IMG/VR virus record: IMGVR_UViG_2579778866_000006
DNA from: a virus
Lineage: Duplodnaviria; Heunggongvirae; Uroviricota; Caudoviricetes
Reading direction: 5' to 3' (one strand)
Length of the DNA: 35,265 bases
Made by a program: the position numbers and the translations under genes. Positions 7,921-34,209 of this stretch are shown here, in pieces (position 1 is the stretch's first letter; the number at the start of each line of letters is the position of its first letter). Under the pieces are notes generated by a model, which worked only from the letters and a program-made list of their open reading frames with translations, was not told the origin of the DNA and searched no databases.

Positions 7921-8515
7921 CCTGACTCTTCTCTATTGTTCCGCTTGATTCTCCTGCGGGGTGGTAACGATAAATCGTCGATATACCAATGCCGTAAATT
8001 ATTGCCAGTTGTTTTCTGTCGTGCCCGTTTTTGATCAGCCTTGCTATTTGCTCATGCTGTTCTTTTGTCAGCTTCGGGCGACGTCCGCCTGTGCGCCCCC
8101 GTGCGCGCGCTGCCGCCAGTCCGGCCAGTGTACGTTCAACAATTAATTCACGTTCCATTTCAGCCAGGGCACCCATCACGTGGAAGAAAAAACGCCCCAT
8201 TGGAGAAGATGTATCTATGCTGTCGGTCAGACTGCGAAAATTAATCCCTCGCTCCCGTAGTTCCCCGACGAGAGAAATCAGATGTTTCATGCTTCGCCCG
8301 AGGCGATCCAGTTTCCAGACAACCAGCGTGTCACCTTTTTGAAGGCGCTTTAAAGCGCGTTTTAATCCCGGTCGGTCTGTCTTTGTCCCGCTTAATTTAT
8401 CTTCAAATATTTGTTCACATCCTGCACAAACAAGAGCGTTTCGTTGCAGGTCTGTATTCTGGTCATTTGTTGATACCCTTACATAGCCAATCAGCACGCT
8501 GAATCTCCCGTCCAA
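7910..8515 (-). CDS. Serine recombinase, DNA invertase of the Gin/Cin/Pin/Hin family
   Basis: 201 aa; N-terminal resolvase catalytic domain (GYVRVSTNDQ with the catalytic Ser, LVVWKLDRLGRS) and C-terminal HTH (GISTIYRY); adjacent to a gix-like crossover site. Confidence 0.95.
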   Translation of the reverse strand: MDGRFSVLIGYVRVSTNDQNTDLQRNALVCAGCEQIFEDKLSGTKTDRPGLKRALKRLQKGDTLVVWKLDRLGRSMKHLISLVGELRERGINFRSLTDSIDTSSPMGRFFFHVMGALAEMERELIVERTLAGLAAARARGRTGGRRPKLTKEQHEQIARLIKNGHDRKQLAIIYGIGISTIYRYHPAGESSGTIEKSQETK

Positions 8516-8577: not shown

Positions 8578-9273
8578 CTCGGCACAAGCGGGGAGAAAAT
8601 ACCGTTACTCAGTACAGCGAATACCTGGACTAATCGACAAACATTCAGCGGTGGCCTTTCTGGTGAACTATCCGGCAATGCTTCTACAGCTGCAAAATTA
8701 AAAACTGCCAGGAAAATAAGCAATGTGGCTTTTGATGGTTCCTCCGATATCACATTAAAAGCAAGTCATGTTGGTGCGTTTGCCTTAGGGAAAACAGGAA
8801 GCACCGTTGCGAATGATAAAGCAGTTGGATGGAACTGGAGTAGCGGAGCCTATAACGCAACTATTAGTGGTGCATCAACGTTAATTATTCATTTTTATAT
8901 GGGAGAAGGAAGTTGTCCTGCAGCTCAGTTTCGGATTAATTATAAAAATGGCGGTATTTTTTATCGTTCAGCCCGTGATGGTTATGGTTTTGAAGCCGAC
9001 TGGTCCGAATTTTACACCACCACCAGAAAACCTTCAGCAGGAGATGTTGGTGCATATACTAAAGCGGAATGTAATTCACGATTTATTACAGGTGTCCGTT
9101 TAGGAGGACTGTCATCTGTTCAAACATGGAATGGGCCTGGTTGGTCTGATAAGTCAGGTTATGTCGTTACAGGTTCAGTTAACGGAAACCGTGACGAATT
9201 AATTGATACAACTCAGGCAAGGCCAATTCAGTATTGCATTAATGGGACGTGGTATAACGCGGGGAGTATTTAA
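8566..9273 (+). CDS. Alternative tail-fibre C-terminal variable cassette (Sv'-like); no start of its own, expressed only after inversion
   Basis: Track ORF 8725..9273 starts at the first GTG of a frame that is open back to the crossover site at about 8566 and closed by TAA just upstream. C-terminal motif RPIQYCINGTWYNAGSI parallels RPIQKYINGTWYNVAQV of the H gene. Confidence 0.7.
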   Translation, partial: GLRELGTSGEKIPLLSTANTWTNRQTFSGGLSGELSGNASTAAKLKTARKISNVAFDGSSDITLKASHVGAFALGKTGSTVANDKAVGWNWSSGAYNATISGASTLIIHFYMGEGSCPAAQFRINYKNGGIFYRSARDGYGFEADWSEFYTTTRKPSAGDVGAYTKAECNSRFITGVRLGGLSSVQTWNGPGWSDKSGYVVTGSVNGNRDELIDTTQARPIQYCINGTWYNAGSI

Positions 9274-25399: not shown

Positions 25400-25711
25400 T
25401 TATTCGGGAAATAACGCCCGGATATTTCCGGCCATCTGACTGGTTATCTGTGCGGTTGATACTGGCTGTGACGCGGGGCATTCTGTCCTGGTTTGTGTCA
25501 CTGATAACGCCTCATCGTCAGCCCATGCAGCCAGTCGGTAAGCCTCTGCCGGATTCATTTTCAGAAGTGCCAGCCCGGCCAGAAAAGCCACGCGTTGGCC
25601 GCTTTTGCGGGCTTCTGGTGTAAGGCTGTCCAGCCAGGCGCATGCTTCGCTTTCGTTCTTGACGGCCGCAGGCTTCAGATAGAAACTTATCCGTCTGGTT
25701 GGTGTCGTCAT
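25400..25711 (-). CDS. ParR-like small protein downstream of parM (putative centromere-binding adaptor)
   Basis: ATG (MTTPTRR) lies 4 nt after the parM stop, with AGGAG overlapping that stop; about 103 aa. Assignment rests on position and size only. Confidence 0.45.
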   Translation of the reverse strand: MTTPTRRISFYLKPAAVKNESEACAWLDSLTPEARKSGQRVAFLAGLALLKMNPAEAYRLAAWADDEALSVTQTRTECPASQPVSTAQITSQMAGNIRALFPE

Positions 25712-25715
25712 TGGT

Positions 25716-26675
25716 TTACTCCTTGTCCATTGCGTACAGCCCATTAACCAGAGCAAACTGTGGCACCCCGTCCGCGATGAAAGTCGCATTAACTCCGCAG
25801 GCTTCGCGGATAGCGGGTGCCACAATCTCCGTCCCGCCACCGACAACCATCACCCGCCCGTAACCCGAAAAACCCGCCAGCGCGCGGATCACGCGTTGTT
25901 TCAGTGTTTCTTCCTTTTCACGAATAACCGCCATCAGGCTGGCGTAATGCGCGTCATTGTGGATGTGCTGGCGCAGCCAGGCTTCATCATGGCGATGTTC
26001 GATAATGGTATTGGCGATGTGGTGACTGGTGCGCATACCGTTAGTGGCCATCACCGACAGTACGGCATCGGCCATCAGAGAAACGCCTACGTGTGGATCG
26101 CAAAACACCTGGCTGATACCTGCCAGTTGCCCCTGAACCTTTGCCACATCCAGCGTGGTTCCGCCCAAATCCACAATCAGCAGGGATTCAAACGGACTCA
26201 TGTCAGCCAGTGCTTTAAAGCCAGCCGGAATAGATTCAGGCATAACCCGCACGTTACGGATAGTGAATGCCTCGCCGTTCTGGTACTCCACCGGGCGCAT
26301 AACGTTCGCTTTTTTGCGGTTGATGTTGGCCATGTCCGGCTGTGCGTTTGTGTCGAAATACTCGCTCAGTGGCAGGGTGACAACCACATCCACCTCCTGT
26401 GGCGTGATGCCTGATTTGACCAGCGCATGATGAATGGCAATGACATTCACATCGCTGTACTGGTATTGCGTGTCGGTCGTCTGGACAAAGCGATCGCTGA
26501 CCGGATCAAAACCATAGCGCACGCCATCAAGCATGTAGTTCGCGGGCTGCGTGCCACCGAACGGCGCAGACCATTCCGACTTGAAGCTGTTCGGGCTGAT
26601 GGCGTTGCGGCGTTCGCCGTTCTCAGTCCATGCCAGCTTGATGTTGGTGGAGCCGTCGTCGATACAAATTTTCAT
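25716..26675 (-). CDS. parM: ParM/StbA-family actin-like ATPase (plasmid segregation protein homologue)
   Basis: 319 aa; strong resemblance along the whole length to plasmid R1 ParM (IDDGSTNIKL, SPNSFK, QYSDVNV.A.HHAL, ANF/ANV, VMPESIPAG, LLI.DLGGTTLD, FSGY..VMV.GGG, LVNG.Y). Confidence 0.85.
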   Translation of the reverse strand: MKICIDDGSTNIKLAWTENGERRNAISPNSFKSEWSAPFGGTQPANYMLDGVRYGFDPVSDRFVQTTDTQYQYSDVNVIAIHHALVKSGITPQEVDVVVTLPLSEYFDTNAQPDMANINRKKANVMRPVEYQNGEAFTIRNVRVMPESIPAGFKALADMSPFESLLIVDLGGTTLDVAKVQGQLAGISQVFCDPHVGVSLMADAVLSVMATNGMRTSHHIANTIIEHRHDEAWLRQHIHNDAHYASLMAVIREKEETLKQRVIRALAGFSGYGRVMVVGGGTEIVAPAIREACGVNATFIADGVPQFALVNGLYAMDKE

Positions 26676-26751: not shown

Positions 26752-29592
26752 TCATATATCGCTGCGCGTTTTTTGCTCATTTACGGGATTCGTGAGTCCC
26801 GTTTCTGTCTGTTTTTTGTTTCCACTGGTCAGGCCACCCCGCAGCAGGTCTGCTTTGCGGCTGGCGCGTTCAGTGGTTTCACTGATTCTCTGTGTGTGCT
26901 CTGCGTCGCGGATGGCGCGCAGCATGTCAGAAAGCACGGTAACGGGTGTTTTCATGGTGTTCTGGTCCTGCTGAAGTGTGGATGCCAGGCGTGCGGCGGC
27001 TTCAGGGTCTGATGCCCCCAGCTGTGCCAGATAGCTGGCGACCGGGTTATGGCGGATCTCCGTGCTGCTTACGCCATGATTACGGCTCAGGCGCTGCCAG
27101 AGCTGCGTGATTCGGCTGTCCGGGCGGGTATCCGGTTTGCGTACAATTTCAAATCCCTGCGGTGCAATGATGCTGCCGTCAACGTACAGACTGCCGCCCC
27201 GTAACAGGTGCTGCATCTGTTGTTCACCGATATGCAGGCCGAGAGATTCAGCAGACTCCCGCCATTCTTTAGCGAGTAATTCGTGGTTATCAGGCAAAGG
27301 CCGCTGCTGTTTACGGCTCTGTGTCCAGCTCTGCATTTCATCACTGCTGTTTTTTGCCTGTTTGTCACGAAGCGAACGCATCAGCGCCCGGCGTTCGTGC
27401 CGTTTCAGTGAGCGCATCCATTCGTTCACTTCAACGCCGTCAGGGAGCTGCGGCCACGGTACTGGCCGTTCTTCCGGCTGTTCTGTCCCGTTGTTGTCCG
27501 TTTCCTGTACACGGGGACAGTTATTGCCACGAGTCCAAGGGGCGGCAGGGCCGCCCTGAAGGTCAAAACCATTTTCGCGGGCGCTGTCTTCCGCTTCCGG
27601 TTTACGTCTTACCAGCTTCCAGTTATCCGGGTGCGTGCACACGCGGGAAGACTCCCCGATGAGCGGCGACCAGATCCCGTAAATCTGTACACTCTGCTCG
27701 CCGTAATCGTTCAGCTCATCTGCGAGGTCGTAGGCGGTGCGAATCAGGTAGTCTTTGCGTGGAACAAGTACGCCACCCTGTTTCTCAATGTAGGTGGCAA
27801 AACATCCGGCATCAGCGGCAGCGAGTACCGCGTCCATTGCGTCATCCTTCAGCCGTTGCGGGCCTTCCGGGTTGCGTGCCATCTGGCTGGCAAGGCGGCG
27901 CAGTTCACGCCACACCTGACGGGAGGGGATACCAAAGAACTGGAACTGGCGGACCCGGTGAAGGCGCGCCCAGCCGATGGCGCGTTCCACGCTCTCGGCC
28001 ATTGATTTTCCGGTTTCGTGGTCAACGCGTGGCTTGCCCGTTTTCGGGTCGATGCCATCCACGGCGCGGCTGTCCAGGTTCTTTCCGATGTAGGTGGCGA
28101 TGTAGCTGGTTGGTGTGCCTTTTGAGCCGTCGACATACTCCACCTTAAAGCGCGGAGTAATATCATTGCCCAGCTCGTGGCGGTCTTCCTGAATGGCAAT
28201 ATCGCGGGTGATGGCCACGATGCTGTCGATTTCTTCCGGATGAGCAAAGACCATCATGTGCCAGTGCACGGTGCCGTCATGGTGAGGCTCCACCGTGCGG
28301 ATGCCATACCAGCGCAGGCCGTCGCGGTTCAGTTTTTTGCGGACCGCCGCAAAAAACGTGTTAACCAGGTAATCGCTGGAGTCGCGCATGGTGGCCCCGT
28401 TCCATTTGGGGTTCGGATGACCGTTCTCCGTTGTTGCGTGGTATTTTGACGGGCAGGTGACAGTCAGAAACACCGCTCTGTCGCCACGGGCTTCGGCCAG
28501 AAGTTCCAGTCCCTTCATGGTGGCCATCATTTCTGCCTTACGGTGGACCGGGTTACTTACTCCCGCGTAATACACCGTCTCGAGATCAATCGTGAACCCG
28601 TCTTCGTTTTCCAGCATGAAACTTTTCAGGAAATCGCGTGTTTTCTCGCGCTGTGCGCGAAACTCGCTTAACGCGTCCTGGCTCAGATAGGGCGATGTTT
28701 TTCTGGAAACCAGACAGGCGGCGCGGAGTTGTTCTTCCCGCCACTCGCAACGTAACAGCCACAGTTTGCGTTTCCACCATTCTGCACAGGTCAGGCGGAG
28801 GATTGCGCCCGGCAGCAGTTCCGTGTCCGGTTCGTTCTTGCGGTCTTTGTCTGTTGTCAGTGCGTCATAATGTGGAGGCATGGCGTGCAGGTGTAACGCC
28901 ATGCGGGCCAGCATCTGATACGCCTTCAGTGCCACCTCCATGGTCAGCTCACCATCGGTCGCGCCAAAGCCATCGCAGAGTTTTTCGAAGGTGCTGCTGA
29001 ACATCGCCGCCGTCATGGTGGCCAGCGTCTGTATCTGGTGCTTGTTGAGCTGCGGCAGGTAAAGCAAATCATCCAGGCGTTCGCGTCCGGCAAGGGAGCG
29101 ATAACCCGGTGTCAGCCAGCGGTGGTCGGTGCGGTCCAGGCGTTCGAATATTTTGCGCAGGGTTCCGCGCGCGTAGCGTTCAGCCTGCCAGCTCTTTTTG
29201 CCTTTCTGGCGATCGGCTTCCTGTTTTTTGCGCAGGAAAGAGAGGTGGCGGCTCAGAGGTTCACGCAGATAAACGGGAAGCACCTTCAGTGTGGCAAAAG
29301 CACGGGCTACCGGGTCTTGTTCTGTTGCCCGGCGCTTACTGATGATGCTCTGAGCCAGCTTTTCACGCTGTCCGGCTTCCTCAAGGGATGCCATGAGTTT
29401 TTTACCCATGGCGGATTGTGCGAAAAAGGCTTCCTCCTTCGCTTCCTGTTCTTCCCGGGCCTTTTTGTCCGCCTCAAGGTAGTAACGGATGGCGCGTTGC
29501 AGGTCGGTTTCAGTTTCCTGCCTGCGCTCCGTAAATCTGGCCGGATCAATGGCTGGTCGTGGTTCATTCCAGCTCCATGCAAACTCACTCAT
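26752..29592 (-). CDS. A: Replication initiation endonuclease A (rolling-circle initiator)
   Basis: Large ORF at the end of the early operon with P2/186 A-family features (HWHMMVF histidine motif, YIATYIGKNLD); start placed at MSEFAWSW, whose ATG overlaps the upstream stop (ATGA). Longer than P2 A. Confidence 0.85.
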   Translation of the reverse strand: MSEFAWSWNEPRPAIDPARFTERRQETETDLQRAIRYYLEADKKAREEQEAKEEAFFAQSAMGKKLMASLEEAGQREKLAQSIISKRRATEQDPVARAFATLKVLPVYLREPLSRHLSFLRKKQEADRQKGKKSWQAERYARGTLRKIFERLDRTDHRWLTPGYRSLAGRERLDDLLYLPQLNKHQIQTLATMTAAMFSSTFEKLCDGFGATDGELTMEVALKAYQMLARMALHLHAMPPHYDALTTDKDRKNEPDTELLPGAILRLTCAEWWKRKLWLLRCEWREEQLRAACLVSRKTSPYLSQDALSEFRAQREKTRDFLKSFMLENEDGFTIDLETVYYAGVSNPVHRKAEMMATMKGLELLAEARGDRAVFLTVTCPSKYHATTENGHPNPKWNGATMRDSSDYLVNTFFAAVRKKLNRDGLRWYGIRTVEPHHDGTVHWHMMVFAHPEEIDSIVAITRDIAIQEDRHELGNDITPRFKVEYVDGSKGTPTSYIATYIGKNLDSRAVDGIDPKTGKPRVDHETGKSMAESVERAIGWARLHRVRQFQFFGIPSRQVWRELRRLASQMARNPEGPQRLKDDAMDAVLAAADAGCFATYIEKQGGVLVPRKDYLIRTAYDLADELNDYGEQSVQIYGIWSPLIGESSRVCTHPDNWKLVRRKPEAEDSARENGFDLQGGPAAPWTRGNNCPRVQETDNNGTEQPEERPVPWPQLPDGVEVNEWMRSLKRHERRALMRSLRDKQAKNSSDEMQSWTQSRKQQRPLPDNHELLAKEWRESAESLGLHIGEQQMQHLLRGGSLYVDGSIIAPQGFEIVRKPDTRPDSRITQLWQRLSRNHGVSSTEIRHNPVASYLAQLGASDPEAAARLASTLQQDQNTMKTPVTVLSDMLRAIRDAEHTQRISETTERASRKADLLRGGLTSGNKKQTETGLTNPVNEQKTRSDI

Positions 29593-29978
29593 GGCTGGTA
29601 TCCCGTCACGCGCTGCCACTCCTGCGAGAAGATGGCGGAAAGGCGGTCAAATTCAGCGGTGTATTCACTCAGCGAGGCACACCCGCCAGCAGTGCGATGC
29701 GCCAGTATTGCCGCAAATACGGAGGCCGGGGAGTCGTAATACGCCAGTAGTGATTCGCCGTGTGGTGTCAGGCAGTGCAACGCCAGCCCGTGTGGTGTGA
29801 AGTCCACGCGGTAGCAGTCGTCTACTGTGAAATAAAGGGTGTCTGCATTCTCCGGTTTTGTGGTGCGTGCTCTGTTGTCACGACCACGGATGTAGAGATC
29901 AAATAATCCCTGAAGAACGGGAGCCAGACGGGTGTCCTGTGTGCGCACCCATCTTGTGAAGTCATGAGCGTCAATCAT
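29589..29978 (-). CDS. Hypothetical early protein (129 aa)
   Basis: ORF translationally coupled to A (ATGA overlap). Confidence 0.6.
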   Translation of the reverse strand: MIDAHDFTRWVRTQDTRLAPVLQGLFDLYIRGRDNRARTTKPENADTLYFTVDDCYRVDFTPHGLALHCLTPHGESLLAYYDSPASVFAAILAHRTAGGCASLSEYTAEFDRLSAIFSQEWQRVTGYQP

Positions 29979-30050
29979 GCTGCAATTCTCTTTACTACAG
30001 ATGTGCGAAGGCCTCCCGCCGCAAGGTGCAGGAAAGGCCCGGAACAGGAA

Positions 30051-30281
30051 TTAATGGAGTTTGTTTTGCTGCTGGAAGAGCTGCTGAAGCTCGCGCAGAT
30101 CATCCGCCAGATAGCTGAAAACAGCGGATGAGTAGAGGTTTGAAAGTTCGCAGCTACGCTCATGCAGCATATTGATGTGCATGATTTTAGCGACGCGGAA
30201 TGCGCGGGAAAGTCTGCGGTTGATTTCAGTCTGGATGTGACGACGCTCCGCGATAGCGCGGTGCTGTTTGCGGTCTGCCAT
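30051..30281 (-). CDS. Hypothetical early protein (76 aa)
   Basis: ATG preceded by AAAGAGG; basic helical protein. Confidence 0.55.
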   Translation of the reverse strand: MADRKQHRAIAERRHIQTEINRRLSRAFRVAKIMHINMLHERSCELSNLYSSAVFSYLADDLRELQQLFQQQNKLH

Positions 30282-30458
30282 GGTGTGGCCTCTTTGGTTG
30301 TAAGTTTTGAAAACTCACCATCCAGAGCTGCGAAACAGTGGGTGGCGAGACGTACGAGGTTCGCAGTACCGGCAACCAAAGAACCCGGCCCGACCGAAGT
30401 CGGCCCCGTACGCCCCGCCATAATTCGTGTGCGAAAAAGACGTGGCAATACAGTACGC

Positions 30459-30483
30459 ACAAAAAAACCGCTGGCGCGGTTGT
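30459..30483 (-). terminator. Intrinsic terminator-like hairpin inside the early operon
   Basis: On the minus strand: stem aaccgc / gcggtt (loop gcca) followed by TTTTTTT. Confidence 0.5.
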
Positions 30484-30601
30484 GCGCTTTGGTTGTCAGC
30501 AGGCTGCGAAACCCGGCACCCGTTTTATGAGGTGCAGCGGAAATGTAACCTGACTGATTGCGGCATGGCAAGCGGTTTTTTTGTGTGTACATGATGCTCA
30601 T

Positions 30602-31153
30602 TCAGTTTGGAAGCAGTTCGTATAACAGGGCGTCGGCAGCGGTTCGGCGGTTGTAAAGCCACCACGCTGTGCTGTATGCCATCTGTATCCCTGTGATTTT
30701 GTGTATATGTCTGCTTATTTCCCTGAATGGCATGCCGTGCCCATCACGCAATTCAGTTACCAGATGAACAATATGATCGTCGTATTTAGCAGCATGATGT
30801 ATGCCTCCACACTTCATTGCGCTGTAACCACGATCGCGGAGTATTTTTTGTATGGTGCATTTGCTACATTTCATTTCCCGCGCCATATCCCTCTTGCTTT
30901 TTCGGTGGCGGTTGCTGATTATTTCTGCTATTGCCTTTTCATCCAGCCGCTGGCGTTTCCGGCCAATCAGTCCTCGCTTGCGCAAGGTGATAAGGCGCTG
31001 CCCCGTTGCATGAAATGAGCGATTAAGTCTGGATGTCATTTCCCTGATGCTGTGTTTCGGGTACATGCTTATCAGCAACGCGTCTTCCTGTTTCGTCCAT
31101 TGTTTAACGTGTCTTGGTGCTTGACCGGGGATGCCCATAGGTTTGAGTTTCAC
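30602..31153 (-). CDS. Hypothetical protein (183 aa), possibly DNA-binding
   Basis: Basic protein with HTH-like segments; function not recognised. Confidence 0.55.
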   Translation of the reverse strand: MKLKPMGIPGQAPRHVKQWTKQEDALLISMYPKHSIREMTSRLNRSFHATGQRLITLRKRGLIGRKRQRLDEKAIAEIISNRHRKSKRDMAREMKCSKCTIQKILRDRGYSAMKCGGIHHAAKYDDHIVHLVTELRDGHGMPFREISRHIHKITGIQMAYSTAWWLYNRRTAADALLYELLPN

Positions 31154-33891: not shown

Positions 33892-34209
33892 TTGGAGAAT
33901 TGCAACATGCGTATGACTATTGGAGAGCGCATAAAAATCATGCGTGAAAGCGAGAGACTTACTAGCCTCCCGGATACAGCAAAAATGCTTGGTTTAAACC
34001 GTGATGCTCTGTGGAGATATGAAAGCGGTAAAACCATCCCTAATGCTGAAGTAATTGAGCAAATACTAAACAACCCCAGATTTGAGAAATATGCGTTGTG
34101 GTTTATGACTGGAAAAATTGCGCCTGAATCCGGGCAGATAGCTCCGGCTCTCGCACACTATGGGCAAGAGCCAACGGACTTACCCCCATCCGAAAAGAAA
34201 ATTGGTTAA
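33892..34209 (+). CDS. C: Immunity repressor C
   Basis: Strong match to P2 repressor C, including the near-identical C-terminal block FMTGKIAPESGQIAPALAHYGQ (P2: FMTNQIAPESGQIAPALAHFGQ). Confidence 0.9.
   Translation: MENCNMRMTIGERIKIMRESERLTSLPDTAKMLGLNRDALWRYESGKTIPNAEVIEQILNNPRFEKYALWFMTGKIAPESGQIAPALAHYGQEPTDLPPSEKKIG

Follow-up and report, generated by a model that had tools for sequence, protein, structure and literature searches.

A probable antisense-RNA immunity cassette of the P4/P1 type in the early operon of a complete P2-like prophage

We analysed a 35,265-nucleotide stretch of viral DNA assigned to the Caudoviricetes (IMG/VR virus record IMGVR_UViG_2579778866_000006; hereafter the window, meaning the whole of this stretch), which carries a complete P2-like prophage of E. 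coli, and within it a 320-bp gap between two genes of the early operon. We hold with good confidence that this gap is an antisense-RNA immunity cassette of the type described in P4 and P1, lying inside the early operon. The cassette is of a known kind, the IsrK-C4 arrangement of P4, P1 and Gifsy-1, and a P2-like, helper-type phage is its unreported host. A preliminary description, made from the sequence alone, had pointed to a non-coding gap at 30282-30601, and the list of open reading frames (ORFs) agrees, with the upstream 183-amino-acid (aa) ORF ending at 30602 and the downstream 76-aa ORF starting at 30281.

Scanning the whole window with Rfam covariance models returned exactly two matches at gathering level, both in the gap and both on the minus strand (Table 1). 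The first, to the IsrK (seqA-like) small RNA (sRNA) family, runs over the full model length from 30535 to 30461 and ends in an intrinsic terminator; fold prediction and the Rfam model together give it a layout of a 5' hairpin, the boxes a1 and b1 and the terminator. The second, to the C4 antisense RNA family, has the shape of a long closing stem around two hairpins, and its minimum-free-energy fold is identical to the Rfam structure (-46.8 kcal/mol, z = -4.08, with none of 200 shuffled sequences folding as well). Since both families are present at full length and above their gathering scores, the small RNA locus that the preliminary description had listed as one of three options for the gap is borne out, although that description had missed the C4 RNA, its pairing to the ribosome-binding site of the 76-aa gene and the epsilon-type identity of this gene. 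The Rfam c4-a1b1 model, also tried on the IsrK region, reached 20.5 bits against a gathering score of 46.7, and the isrK model describes the region better. A search for tRNA and tmRNA genes in the window found none.

Table 1. Features of the cassette and its surroundings (window coordinates)
Feature	Coordinates	Strand	Basis and remarks
IsrK / seqA-like sRNA (Rfam RF01394)	30461..30535	-	65.9 bits against gathering score 50; model positions 1-77 of 77
C4 antisense RNA / P4 CI-like (Rfam RF01695)	30338..30425	-	84.5 bits against gathering score 45; model positions 1-87 of 87
a1 box UUUCGCAG, inside IsrK	30504..30511	-	Core 30504-30510 predicted to pair with C4 a'
b1 box CAACCAAAG, inside IsrK	30487..30495	-	Predicted to pair with C4 b' loop
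b' box CUUUGGUUG, loop of C4 hairpin 2	30373..30381	-	Putative specificity determinant
a' box CUGCGAA, single-stranded C4 junction 3' of hairpin 2	30360..30366	-	Putative specificity determinant
a2 box UUUCGCAG, leader directly downstream of C4	30328..30335	-	Predicted to pair with a'
b2 box CAACCAAAG, running into the Shine-Dalgarno sequence	30289..30300	-	b2 30300..30292; Shine-Dalgarno AAGAGG 30294..30289
-35 hexamer TTGCCA, putative IsrK promoter	30566..30571	-	Consensus scan; positional equivalent of P4 PLE
-10 hexamer TACATT, putative IsrK promoter	30542..30547	-	18-nucleotide spacer; predicted transcription start ~30535
Terminator of the preliminary description, IsrK 3' end	30459..30481	-	Stem-loop 30481..30466 plus U7; terminator scan, Rfam match, fold
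76-aa epsilon-like 'derepression protein' gene	30051..30281	-	Predicted C4 target; Pfam, BLASTP, PHROG, codon pattern
Downstream genes, same transcription unit	26752..29978	-	129-aa ORF 29978..29589; replication gene A 29619..26752
183-aa helix-turn-helix (HTH) gene	30602..31153	-	Optional cargo upstream of the cassette, not part of it; weak HTH matches
208-aa ORF over the RNAs and the epsilon-like gene	29975..30601	-	Not a gene

The C4 RNA exposes its a' and b' boxes, and both are complementary to sites upstream and downstream in the same transcript, giving the order a1 b1 / b' a' / a2 b2 that is the classical C4 layout of P1 and P7. Within the 35-kb window, CAACCAAAG occurs only as b1 and b2 and its complement only in the C4 loop. 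The duplex of b' with b2 can reach 11 bp (30383..30373 with 30290..30300) and, by direct reading, 7 nucleotides (nt) separate the Shine-Dalgarno sequence AAGAGG from the ATG of the 76-aa gene that follows it. For the read-through RNA of 276 nt, the minimum-free-energy fold predicts that a1/b1 pair with b'/a' in cis, and this predicted fold resembles the inactive 'structure A' described for Gifsy-1.

Of the 80 IMG/VR loci coding for a protein closely related to the 76-aa product (86-99% identity), all 80 have the cassette, and homology among these loci begins just upstream of the -35 hexamer, at window positions ~30585-30593. Box variability and pairing within and between loci were scored in 49 distinct sequences, promoter and reading frame were checked in 48 relatives, and covariation was counted formally in a 36-sequence alignment with shuffles and slid controls. 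Among the 49 sequences the variable columns are exactly the six boxes, the scaffold being conserved, with a pairwise difference of 0.317 per site for the boxes and 0.083 for the scaffold. The repertoire comprises 11 b' types (CUUGUGUAG being another natural one) and five a' types in 14 combinations.

Within each locus the boxes nevertheless keep matching one another. The b'-b1 helix has 9/9 pairs in all 49 sequences, against a mean of 5.85/9 when boxes are taken from loci with different boxes, and a'-a1 and a'-a2 each have 7/7 pairs within every locus against a mean of 4.57/7 between such loci; for b'-b2 the within-locus average is 10.5/11, against 7.60/11. In the 36-sequence alignment the a1-a' and a'-a2 helices (seven pairs each) are both paired in 100% of cells with four pairs changed on both sides, b1-b' is paired in 100% with seven of nine pairs changed on both sides and up to five pair types at a position, and b'-b2 is paired in 95.7% with six pairs changed on both sides. 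The C4 closing stem and hairpin 1 are likewise 100% paired, each with two pairs changed on both sides. Overall, 154 cells carry changes on both sides, compared with 40.9 +/- 5.5 in shuffled alignments (none of 500 reached 154), and the slid controls are ~40% paired compared with 97% for the proposed structure. This three-way compensatory change is strong evidence that C4 really pairs with both target sites and that the pairings are functional, and it shows the specificity to be under diversifying pressure.

IsrK is preceded by a putative sigma-70-like promoter whose -10 hexamer ends 7 nt ahead of the first isrK base, and the predicted start at ~30535 falls on the base with which the Rfam isrK match begins. 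Neither hexamer changes in the 48 relatives, but the spacer between them does. A second minus-strand promoter match (TTGCCA at 30448, a 17-nt spacer, AATTAT at 30420, with a start at ~30413 inside C4) was treated as chance; if real, this promoter-like match at 30420-30448 could yield a 5'-truncated C4.

The predicted target of C4, the 76-aa gene, belongs to the epsilon family of derepression proteins. Its product matches Pfam PF25738 (Derepression) with 29.1 bits against a cut-off of 27, no other Pfam family scoring above its cut-off, and PHROG 3688 with 151 bits; BLASTP aligns it to P4 epsilon with 32% identity over 50 aa (E = 2e-8). Its homologues form 108 clusters, are named 'derepression protein' wherever the source gives a name, and are confined to Escherichia, Shigella, Salmonella and Serratia; a scan of species representatives with an alignment lacking P4 epsilon found only three genomes. 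An epsilon-like gene at 82% identity in NZ_JBQPOM010000071.1, labelled 'Vagococcus sp.' (Gram-positive), is probably assembly contamination. Of 5426 complete E. coli genomes, 1392 carry the module, and 1154 of these contain at least 80% of it.

The closest parallel to this arrangement is found in the satellite P4, which carries the isrK and C4 families with order and strand unchanged: isrK at 8692..8615 with 60.8 bits, corresponding to seqA plus t1, and C4 at 8507..8420 with 74.9 bits, corresponding to the CI RNA, with epsilon downstream. Elements common to both run promoter (putative in the window), a1 b1, terminator, CI (b' a'), a2, b2/Shine-Dalgarno, ATG, epsilon family and replication gene, and in the window all of them lie in this order on one strand. 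The P4 promoter has the same geometry (TTGCCT, an 18-nt spacer, TATAGT and 6 nt to the first isrK base), and in P4 too b' lies in the loop of C4 hairpin 2, a' in the junction and a1/b1 ahead of an intrinsic terminator. In both elements b2 overlaps a Shine-Dalgarno sequence, but that of P4 serves a small ORF that lies between seqC and epsilon and overlaps the epsilon start, whereas b2 of the window covers the Shine-Dalgarno sequence of the epsilon-like gene itself. The boxes of P4-like elements are also hypervariable and covarying, with three a types and at least eight b types in 80 loci. The two cassettes differ further in the host element (a full P2-like phage here, a satellite in P4), in the spacer from terminator to C4 (35 nt against ~107 nt) and in the replication protein (gpA against the alpha primase); the box sequences differ from the P4-like set, with none common in the same orientation, so that no cross-immunity is predicted. 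The 129-aa ORF downstream of the epsilon-like gene has no homology to P4 orf151, and the corresponding region of P2 contains neither isrK nor C4. IsrK has already been equated with seqA and C4 with CI, and the pair has been reported in P4-like, lambdoid and phage-inducible chromosomal island (PICI) elements (PMC4825925; PMC3632133; PMC10111431). Our literature search found no report of the pair in P2-like phages, and a 2026 survey of P2-like viruses makes no mention of derepression, antisense, IsrK, sRNA or epsilon.

From the characterised homologues in P4, P1/P7 and Gifsy-1 we infer how such a cassette would work. The promoter just upstream, together with read-through from Pe, would make IsrK, most transcripts ending at the hairpin. 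As this hairpin sits between the promoter and the C4 gene, a few bases past a1/b1 (5 nt from b1), C4 production needs read-through, and the read-through transcripts would be processed into stable C4, the 5' end being formed by RNase P. C4 would then pair with a2/b2 and occlude the ribosome-binding site of the epsilon-like gene, keeping the anti-repressor silent, and would probably also lower expression of the downstream 129-aa ORF and gene A. Pairing of C4 with a1/b1 in nascent IsrK could provide feedback on termination, as is reportedly the case at t1 of P4, where antisense pairing beside the terminator is said to act in this way (attributed to Briani et al. 2000). Free or excess IsrK would titrate C4 and so turn epsilon on, and the epsilon-like protein would inactivate the P2-C-type repressor, leaving the prophage derepressed. 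The IsrK promoter is presumed, by analogy, to be active in the lysogen; Gifsy-1 lysogens express IsrK and STnc1160 at high levels under every condition tested (PMC7067206). The C4 and CI RNAs of P1/P7 and P4 are RNase P substrates (PMC5499578).

The last step concerns the repressor. That of the prophage (window region 33892-34209) shares 52% identity with P2 C and has retained the segment W-F-M-T-x-x-I, in which fall the residues T67 and I70 of P2 C that affect binding of the P4 E anti-repressor (PMC2995052). Among the 63 related loci with a recoverable repressor gene there are at least six HTH repressor types of the P2-C family, one cluster of which (C2) is probably a mis-picked ORF, and neither box type nor epsilon cluster is associated with repressor type in these loci. 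This suggests that the epsilon-like protein recognises a conserved surface of the repressor. The repressor types of the relatives share the C-terminal motif F.KY..W...P..GQI.P.L.

A precedent for the trans-acting arm is the isrK - STnc1160/orf45 - anrP locus of the Salmonella prophage Gifsy-1 (Hershko-Shalev et al. 2016, PMC4825925), which likewise combines IsrK and its leaky terminator with a C4-like RNA and a downstream anti-repressor that is translationally silent until IsrK acts in trans. There, STnc1160 is processed from the read-through transcript, and when IsrK is provided in trans the downstream anti-repressor is translated at a more than 100-fold higher level and the prophage is induced (PMC4825925); Hfq binding by IsrK and such trans-activation of a read-through mRNA have been shown only for the Gifsy-1 RNA (PMC4825925). 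Gifsy-1 differs from the window in being a lambdoid prophage and in having an anti-repressor, AnrP, that does not belong to the epsilon type; its translational coupling runs through orf45, an ORF overlapping the C4-like RNA for which no coupled counterpart is evident here, and the downstream consequence through the antiterminator AntQ has no equivalent in the window. In our phage collection the cassette also occurs, at ~70% identity, upstream of the anti-repressor/Rha genes of Shiga toxin (Stx) and other lambdoid phages, one record annotating 'isrK' and 'C4' side by side.

The immI region of P1 and P7 (c4 - icd - ant; Citron and Schuster 1990, Heinrich et al.) offers a second model: its C4 is reportedly processed from the transcript that bears its targets, with a1/b1 upstream, a2/b2 downstream and b2 over the ribosome-binding site of the first downstream ORF, and is said to control the anti-repressor, while box differences between P1 and P7 reportedly make the two hetero-immune. 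The window has the same layout of boxes, but its upstream target region is an IsrK-type terminated sRNA, its anti-repressor is epsilon-type rather than Ant, and it has no icd-like leader ORF coupled to an ant gene, there being no ORF between b2 and the 76-aa gene. P2-like phages have another route to lytic growth in Tum, the anti-repressor that switches the prophage in coliphage 186 and relatives (bioRxiv 10.1101/2024.06.12.598711; PMC7067206). Tum is LexA-controlled and encoded elsewhere in the genome, whereas the cassette of the window has no LexA box nearby and would be controlled by antisense RNA. Matches to CTGT-N8-ACAG in the window stand at chance level (13 against 10.9 +/- 3.0), and the small ORFs tested in the window gave no match to a Tum/DinI-type anti-repressor.

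Several observations weigh against the immunity cassette as we describe it. The putative IsrK promoter, although invariant in relatives, matches the consensus at only 9 of 12 positions. The similarity of the 76-aa protein to epsilon is modest, and its anti-repressor activity and repressor binding are predictions; since epsilon clusters are distributed without regard to repressor type, the anti-repressor is unlikely to be strictly specific for its own phage. P1, P4 and Gifsy-1 couple translation through a small leader ORF that the window lacks, and neither the terminator scan nor the fold revealed an obvious second intrinsic terminator in the leader after a2/b2. A hairpin between a2 and b2 is predicted in the window, but in the alignment it is only 76-79% paired, and we do not claim it as conserved. 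C4 in this phage may act by blocking translation, as in P1, by termination, as in P4, or by both.

The mode of action also defines the alternative that survives best, a purely P4-like mode in which C4 terminates nascent transcripts through a1/b1 and a2/b2, gene A is the real target, immunity is exerted by a block of replication and control of epsilon is secondary. The order of elements is identical to that of P4, the terminator lies only 5 nt past b1, gene A is downstream in the same transcription unit, and P4 CI has been described as acting by transcription termination via seqA and seqC (PMC4825925; PMC3632133). The overlap of b2 with the Shine-Dalgarno sequence is, however, the translational arrangement of P1, and no hairpin-plus-U terminator follows a2/b2 in the leader, where Rho-dependent termination is not something that sequence allows one to judge. 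We regard this alternative as possible but doubtful. Polarity or termination at the cassette may in any case affect the 129-aa ORF and gene A.

The variability of the boxes invites a wider interpretation. The boxes are hypervariable and reassort freely, which suggests a further role for the RNA in trans, between competing phages, where it would add a second specificity of immunity in the manner of immI in P1; hypervariability together with the lack of association with repressor type fits such a second, trans-acting specificity. At least 14 combinations of a' and b' occur on a scaffold with ~8% pairwise divergence. We tentatively put forward a general form of this idea, which as a whole is rather unlikely to hold in full: that P88-like (Xuanwuvirus-type) phages have a second, RNA-based immunity that gates an epsilon-like anti-repressor and possibly the replication operon, with boxes diversifying combinatorially and independently of the C type, with trans-acting exclusion between helpers and possibly with cross-talk between satellite CI and helper C4.

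A related proposal makes the cassette an anti-satellite device, in which the helper C4 cross-reacts with seqA/seqC of P4-like satellites, or the reverse, and so controls the parasite. An idea of this sort was raised for lambdoid prophages by Barquist et al. (PMC3632133), P4-like satellites and this P2-like phage do carry homologous cassettes, and one a-box type is common to both with swapped polarity: the helper a' GUGGAAA equals a satellite a1, and the satellite a' UUUCCAC equals a helper a1. Yet no box in the same orientation is common to the 80 P4-like and 80 P88-like loci, no b box matches in either orientation, and the swapped a-box is a post hoc observation that chance may explain (~1-2% after allowing for fixed flanks, by our own estimate rather than a computed value), and we consider the anti-satellite role improbable. 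A second pair of a-boxes with swapped polarity matches at six of seven positions (UUGAGAA and GUGAGAA). Satellite CI RNA and helper C4 RNA of the swapped a-box types could pair with each other, and genome 2671181114 carries both a helper-type and a P4-like cassette.

The terminator that first drew attention to the gap could also be read without any RNA-based regulation, as a plain intrinsic terminator or attenuator or as the 3' end of upstream cargo. The minus-strand hairpin of the preliminary description (AACCGCGCCAGCGGUU, that is AACCGC-GCCA-GCGGUU, 30481..30466) and its U7 tract (30465..30459) were recovered by a terminator scan, with a hairpin energy of -8.4 to -9.0 kcal/mol. A simple scan is noisy in this region (14 matches against 6.7 +/- 2.2 in shuffles), so that the hairpin-plus-U pattern by itself proves little; what takes the terminator beyond chance is its place in a full-length Rfam isrK match, of which it forms the 3' hairpin. 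Its stem is invariant at 6/6 pairs across the 36 distinct relatives, and the pairwise difference within the terminator is 0.010 per site. The upstream 183-aa gene is indeed optional cargo, and the P2 reference record also annotates a putative rho-independent terminator in the early operon, at 26980-27007, after gene B and before orf80, giving internal terminators in P2-type early operons a precedent and making the premise of a single Pe transcript, on which the preliminary description had leaned, imprecise. However, the hairpin belongs to an RNA preceded by a conserved putative promoter, it recurs unchanged whatever gene lies upstream, the cassette being kept in every related locus, and the boxes flanking it covary with C4. 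The suggested origin as the end of an inserted cargo module is therefore not sustained, and a plain terminator without RNA-based regulation is extremely improbable. The attenuator option fares better, the hairpin being positionally equivalent to terminator t1 of P4, and as part of the IsrK-C4 cassette a role of this kind is plausible.

Current annotation offers one further interpretation, that the gap encodes, or is a remnant of, an Ash family protein. In favour of it, the 208-aa ORF matches Pfam PF10554 (Phage_ASH) with 27.2 bits against a cut-off of 26 and also PHROGs 821, 995, 6928, 29966 and 3960 ('transcriptional regulator/repressor'), in 42 of 48 relatives its frame runs open through the whole gap, and the RefSeq Prokaryotic Genome Annotation Pipeline (PGAP) places an incomplete 'ash family protein' pseudogene on the equivalent stretch, beside the 'derepression protein' and with no non-coding RNA; the phage record PhiR44_2 even calls the long ORF in place of the 76-aa gene. 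All these profile matches are, however, confined to the RNA stretch, and the obsolete 'cI protein' ORF of P4 (8168-8584), which overlies the CI RNA, matches Phage_ASH and the same PHROGs. Despite its profile score the 208-aa ORF shows no protein-coding substitution pattern: in the gap, its three codon positions share the variable sites about equally (38/45/45), compared with 16/14/31 for the 76-aa gene in its own frame, and the variation is compensatory at the RNA level. The frame is closed in 6 of 48 relatives, five having no open frame across the gap and one more only a different frame, and the long ORF runs over the real epsilon-like gene in a different frame. The preliminary description was thus right to call this ORF spurious, and an Ash protein in the gap is barely credible. 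Phage_ASH and several of the PHROG 'regulator' families appear instead to be translations, or artefacts, of the conserved isrK-C4 RNA, and the RefSeq label mistakes RNA genes for an 'ash family protein' pseudogene, an annotation error propagated from such protein families.

The surroundings of the cassette are those of a helper-type phage. The prophage of the window encodes Ogr, gpD, a late region (lysis, head and tail) whose ORFs make up a complete set by late-gene size, gpA, Cox, a C-type HTH repressor and Int, and is closest to P88 and the Xuanwuvirus phages; it does not have the make-up of a P4-like satellite, with alpha primase-helicase, sid, psu and delta and without structural genes. 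The product of replication gene A has 955 aa and matches Phage_GPA with 435.7 bits. Upstream of the cassette, the slot at 30585-31153 holds varying cargo among 61 related loci: the 183-aa HTH gene in 7 including the window, a 276-aa SPFH-domain gene in 14, as in P88, and in 40 a 99-aa Ead/Ea22-like gene that abuts the cassette directly. Just downstream of gene A, at 25400-26675, lie a ParM-type actin-like gene (319 aa, StbA_N and ParM_N) and a Plasmid_stab_B gene, which suggest that the phage may be able to persist or segregate in plasmid form.

In textbooks P2 stands for the non-inducible prophage and P4 for its parasite, and yet a common group of P2-like prophages carries the RNA switch and the kind of anti-repressor that P4 uses against P2, which suggests that satellite and helper have exchanged the cassette. 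The RNAs themselves are textbook; the questions open to test lie in their context, the combinatorial repertoire of specificities and the link to P2/P4 biology. The relatives display, on a single scaffold, a natural set of at least 14 antisense/target specificities that are orthogonal to one another and, should the cross-talk reading prove true, the cassette would offer an RNA route to helper derepression or satellite sensing. Ultimately, the cassette is a testable candidate for the silencing and induction of such prophages without LexA or Tum.

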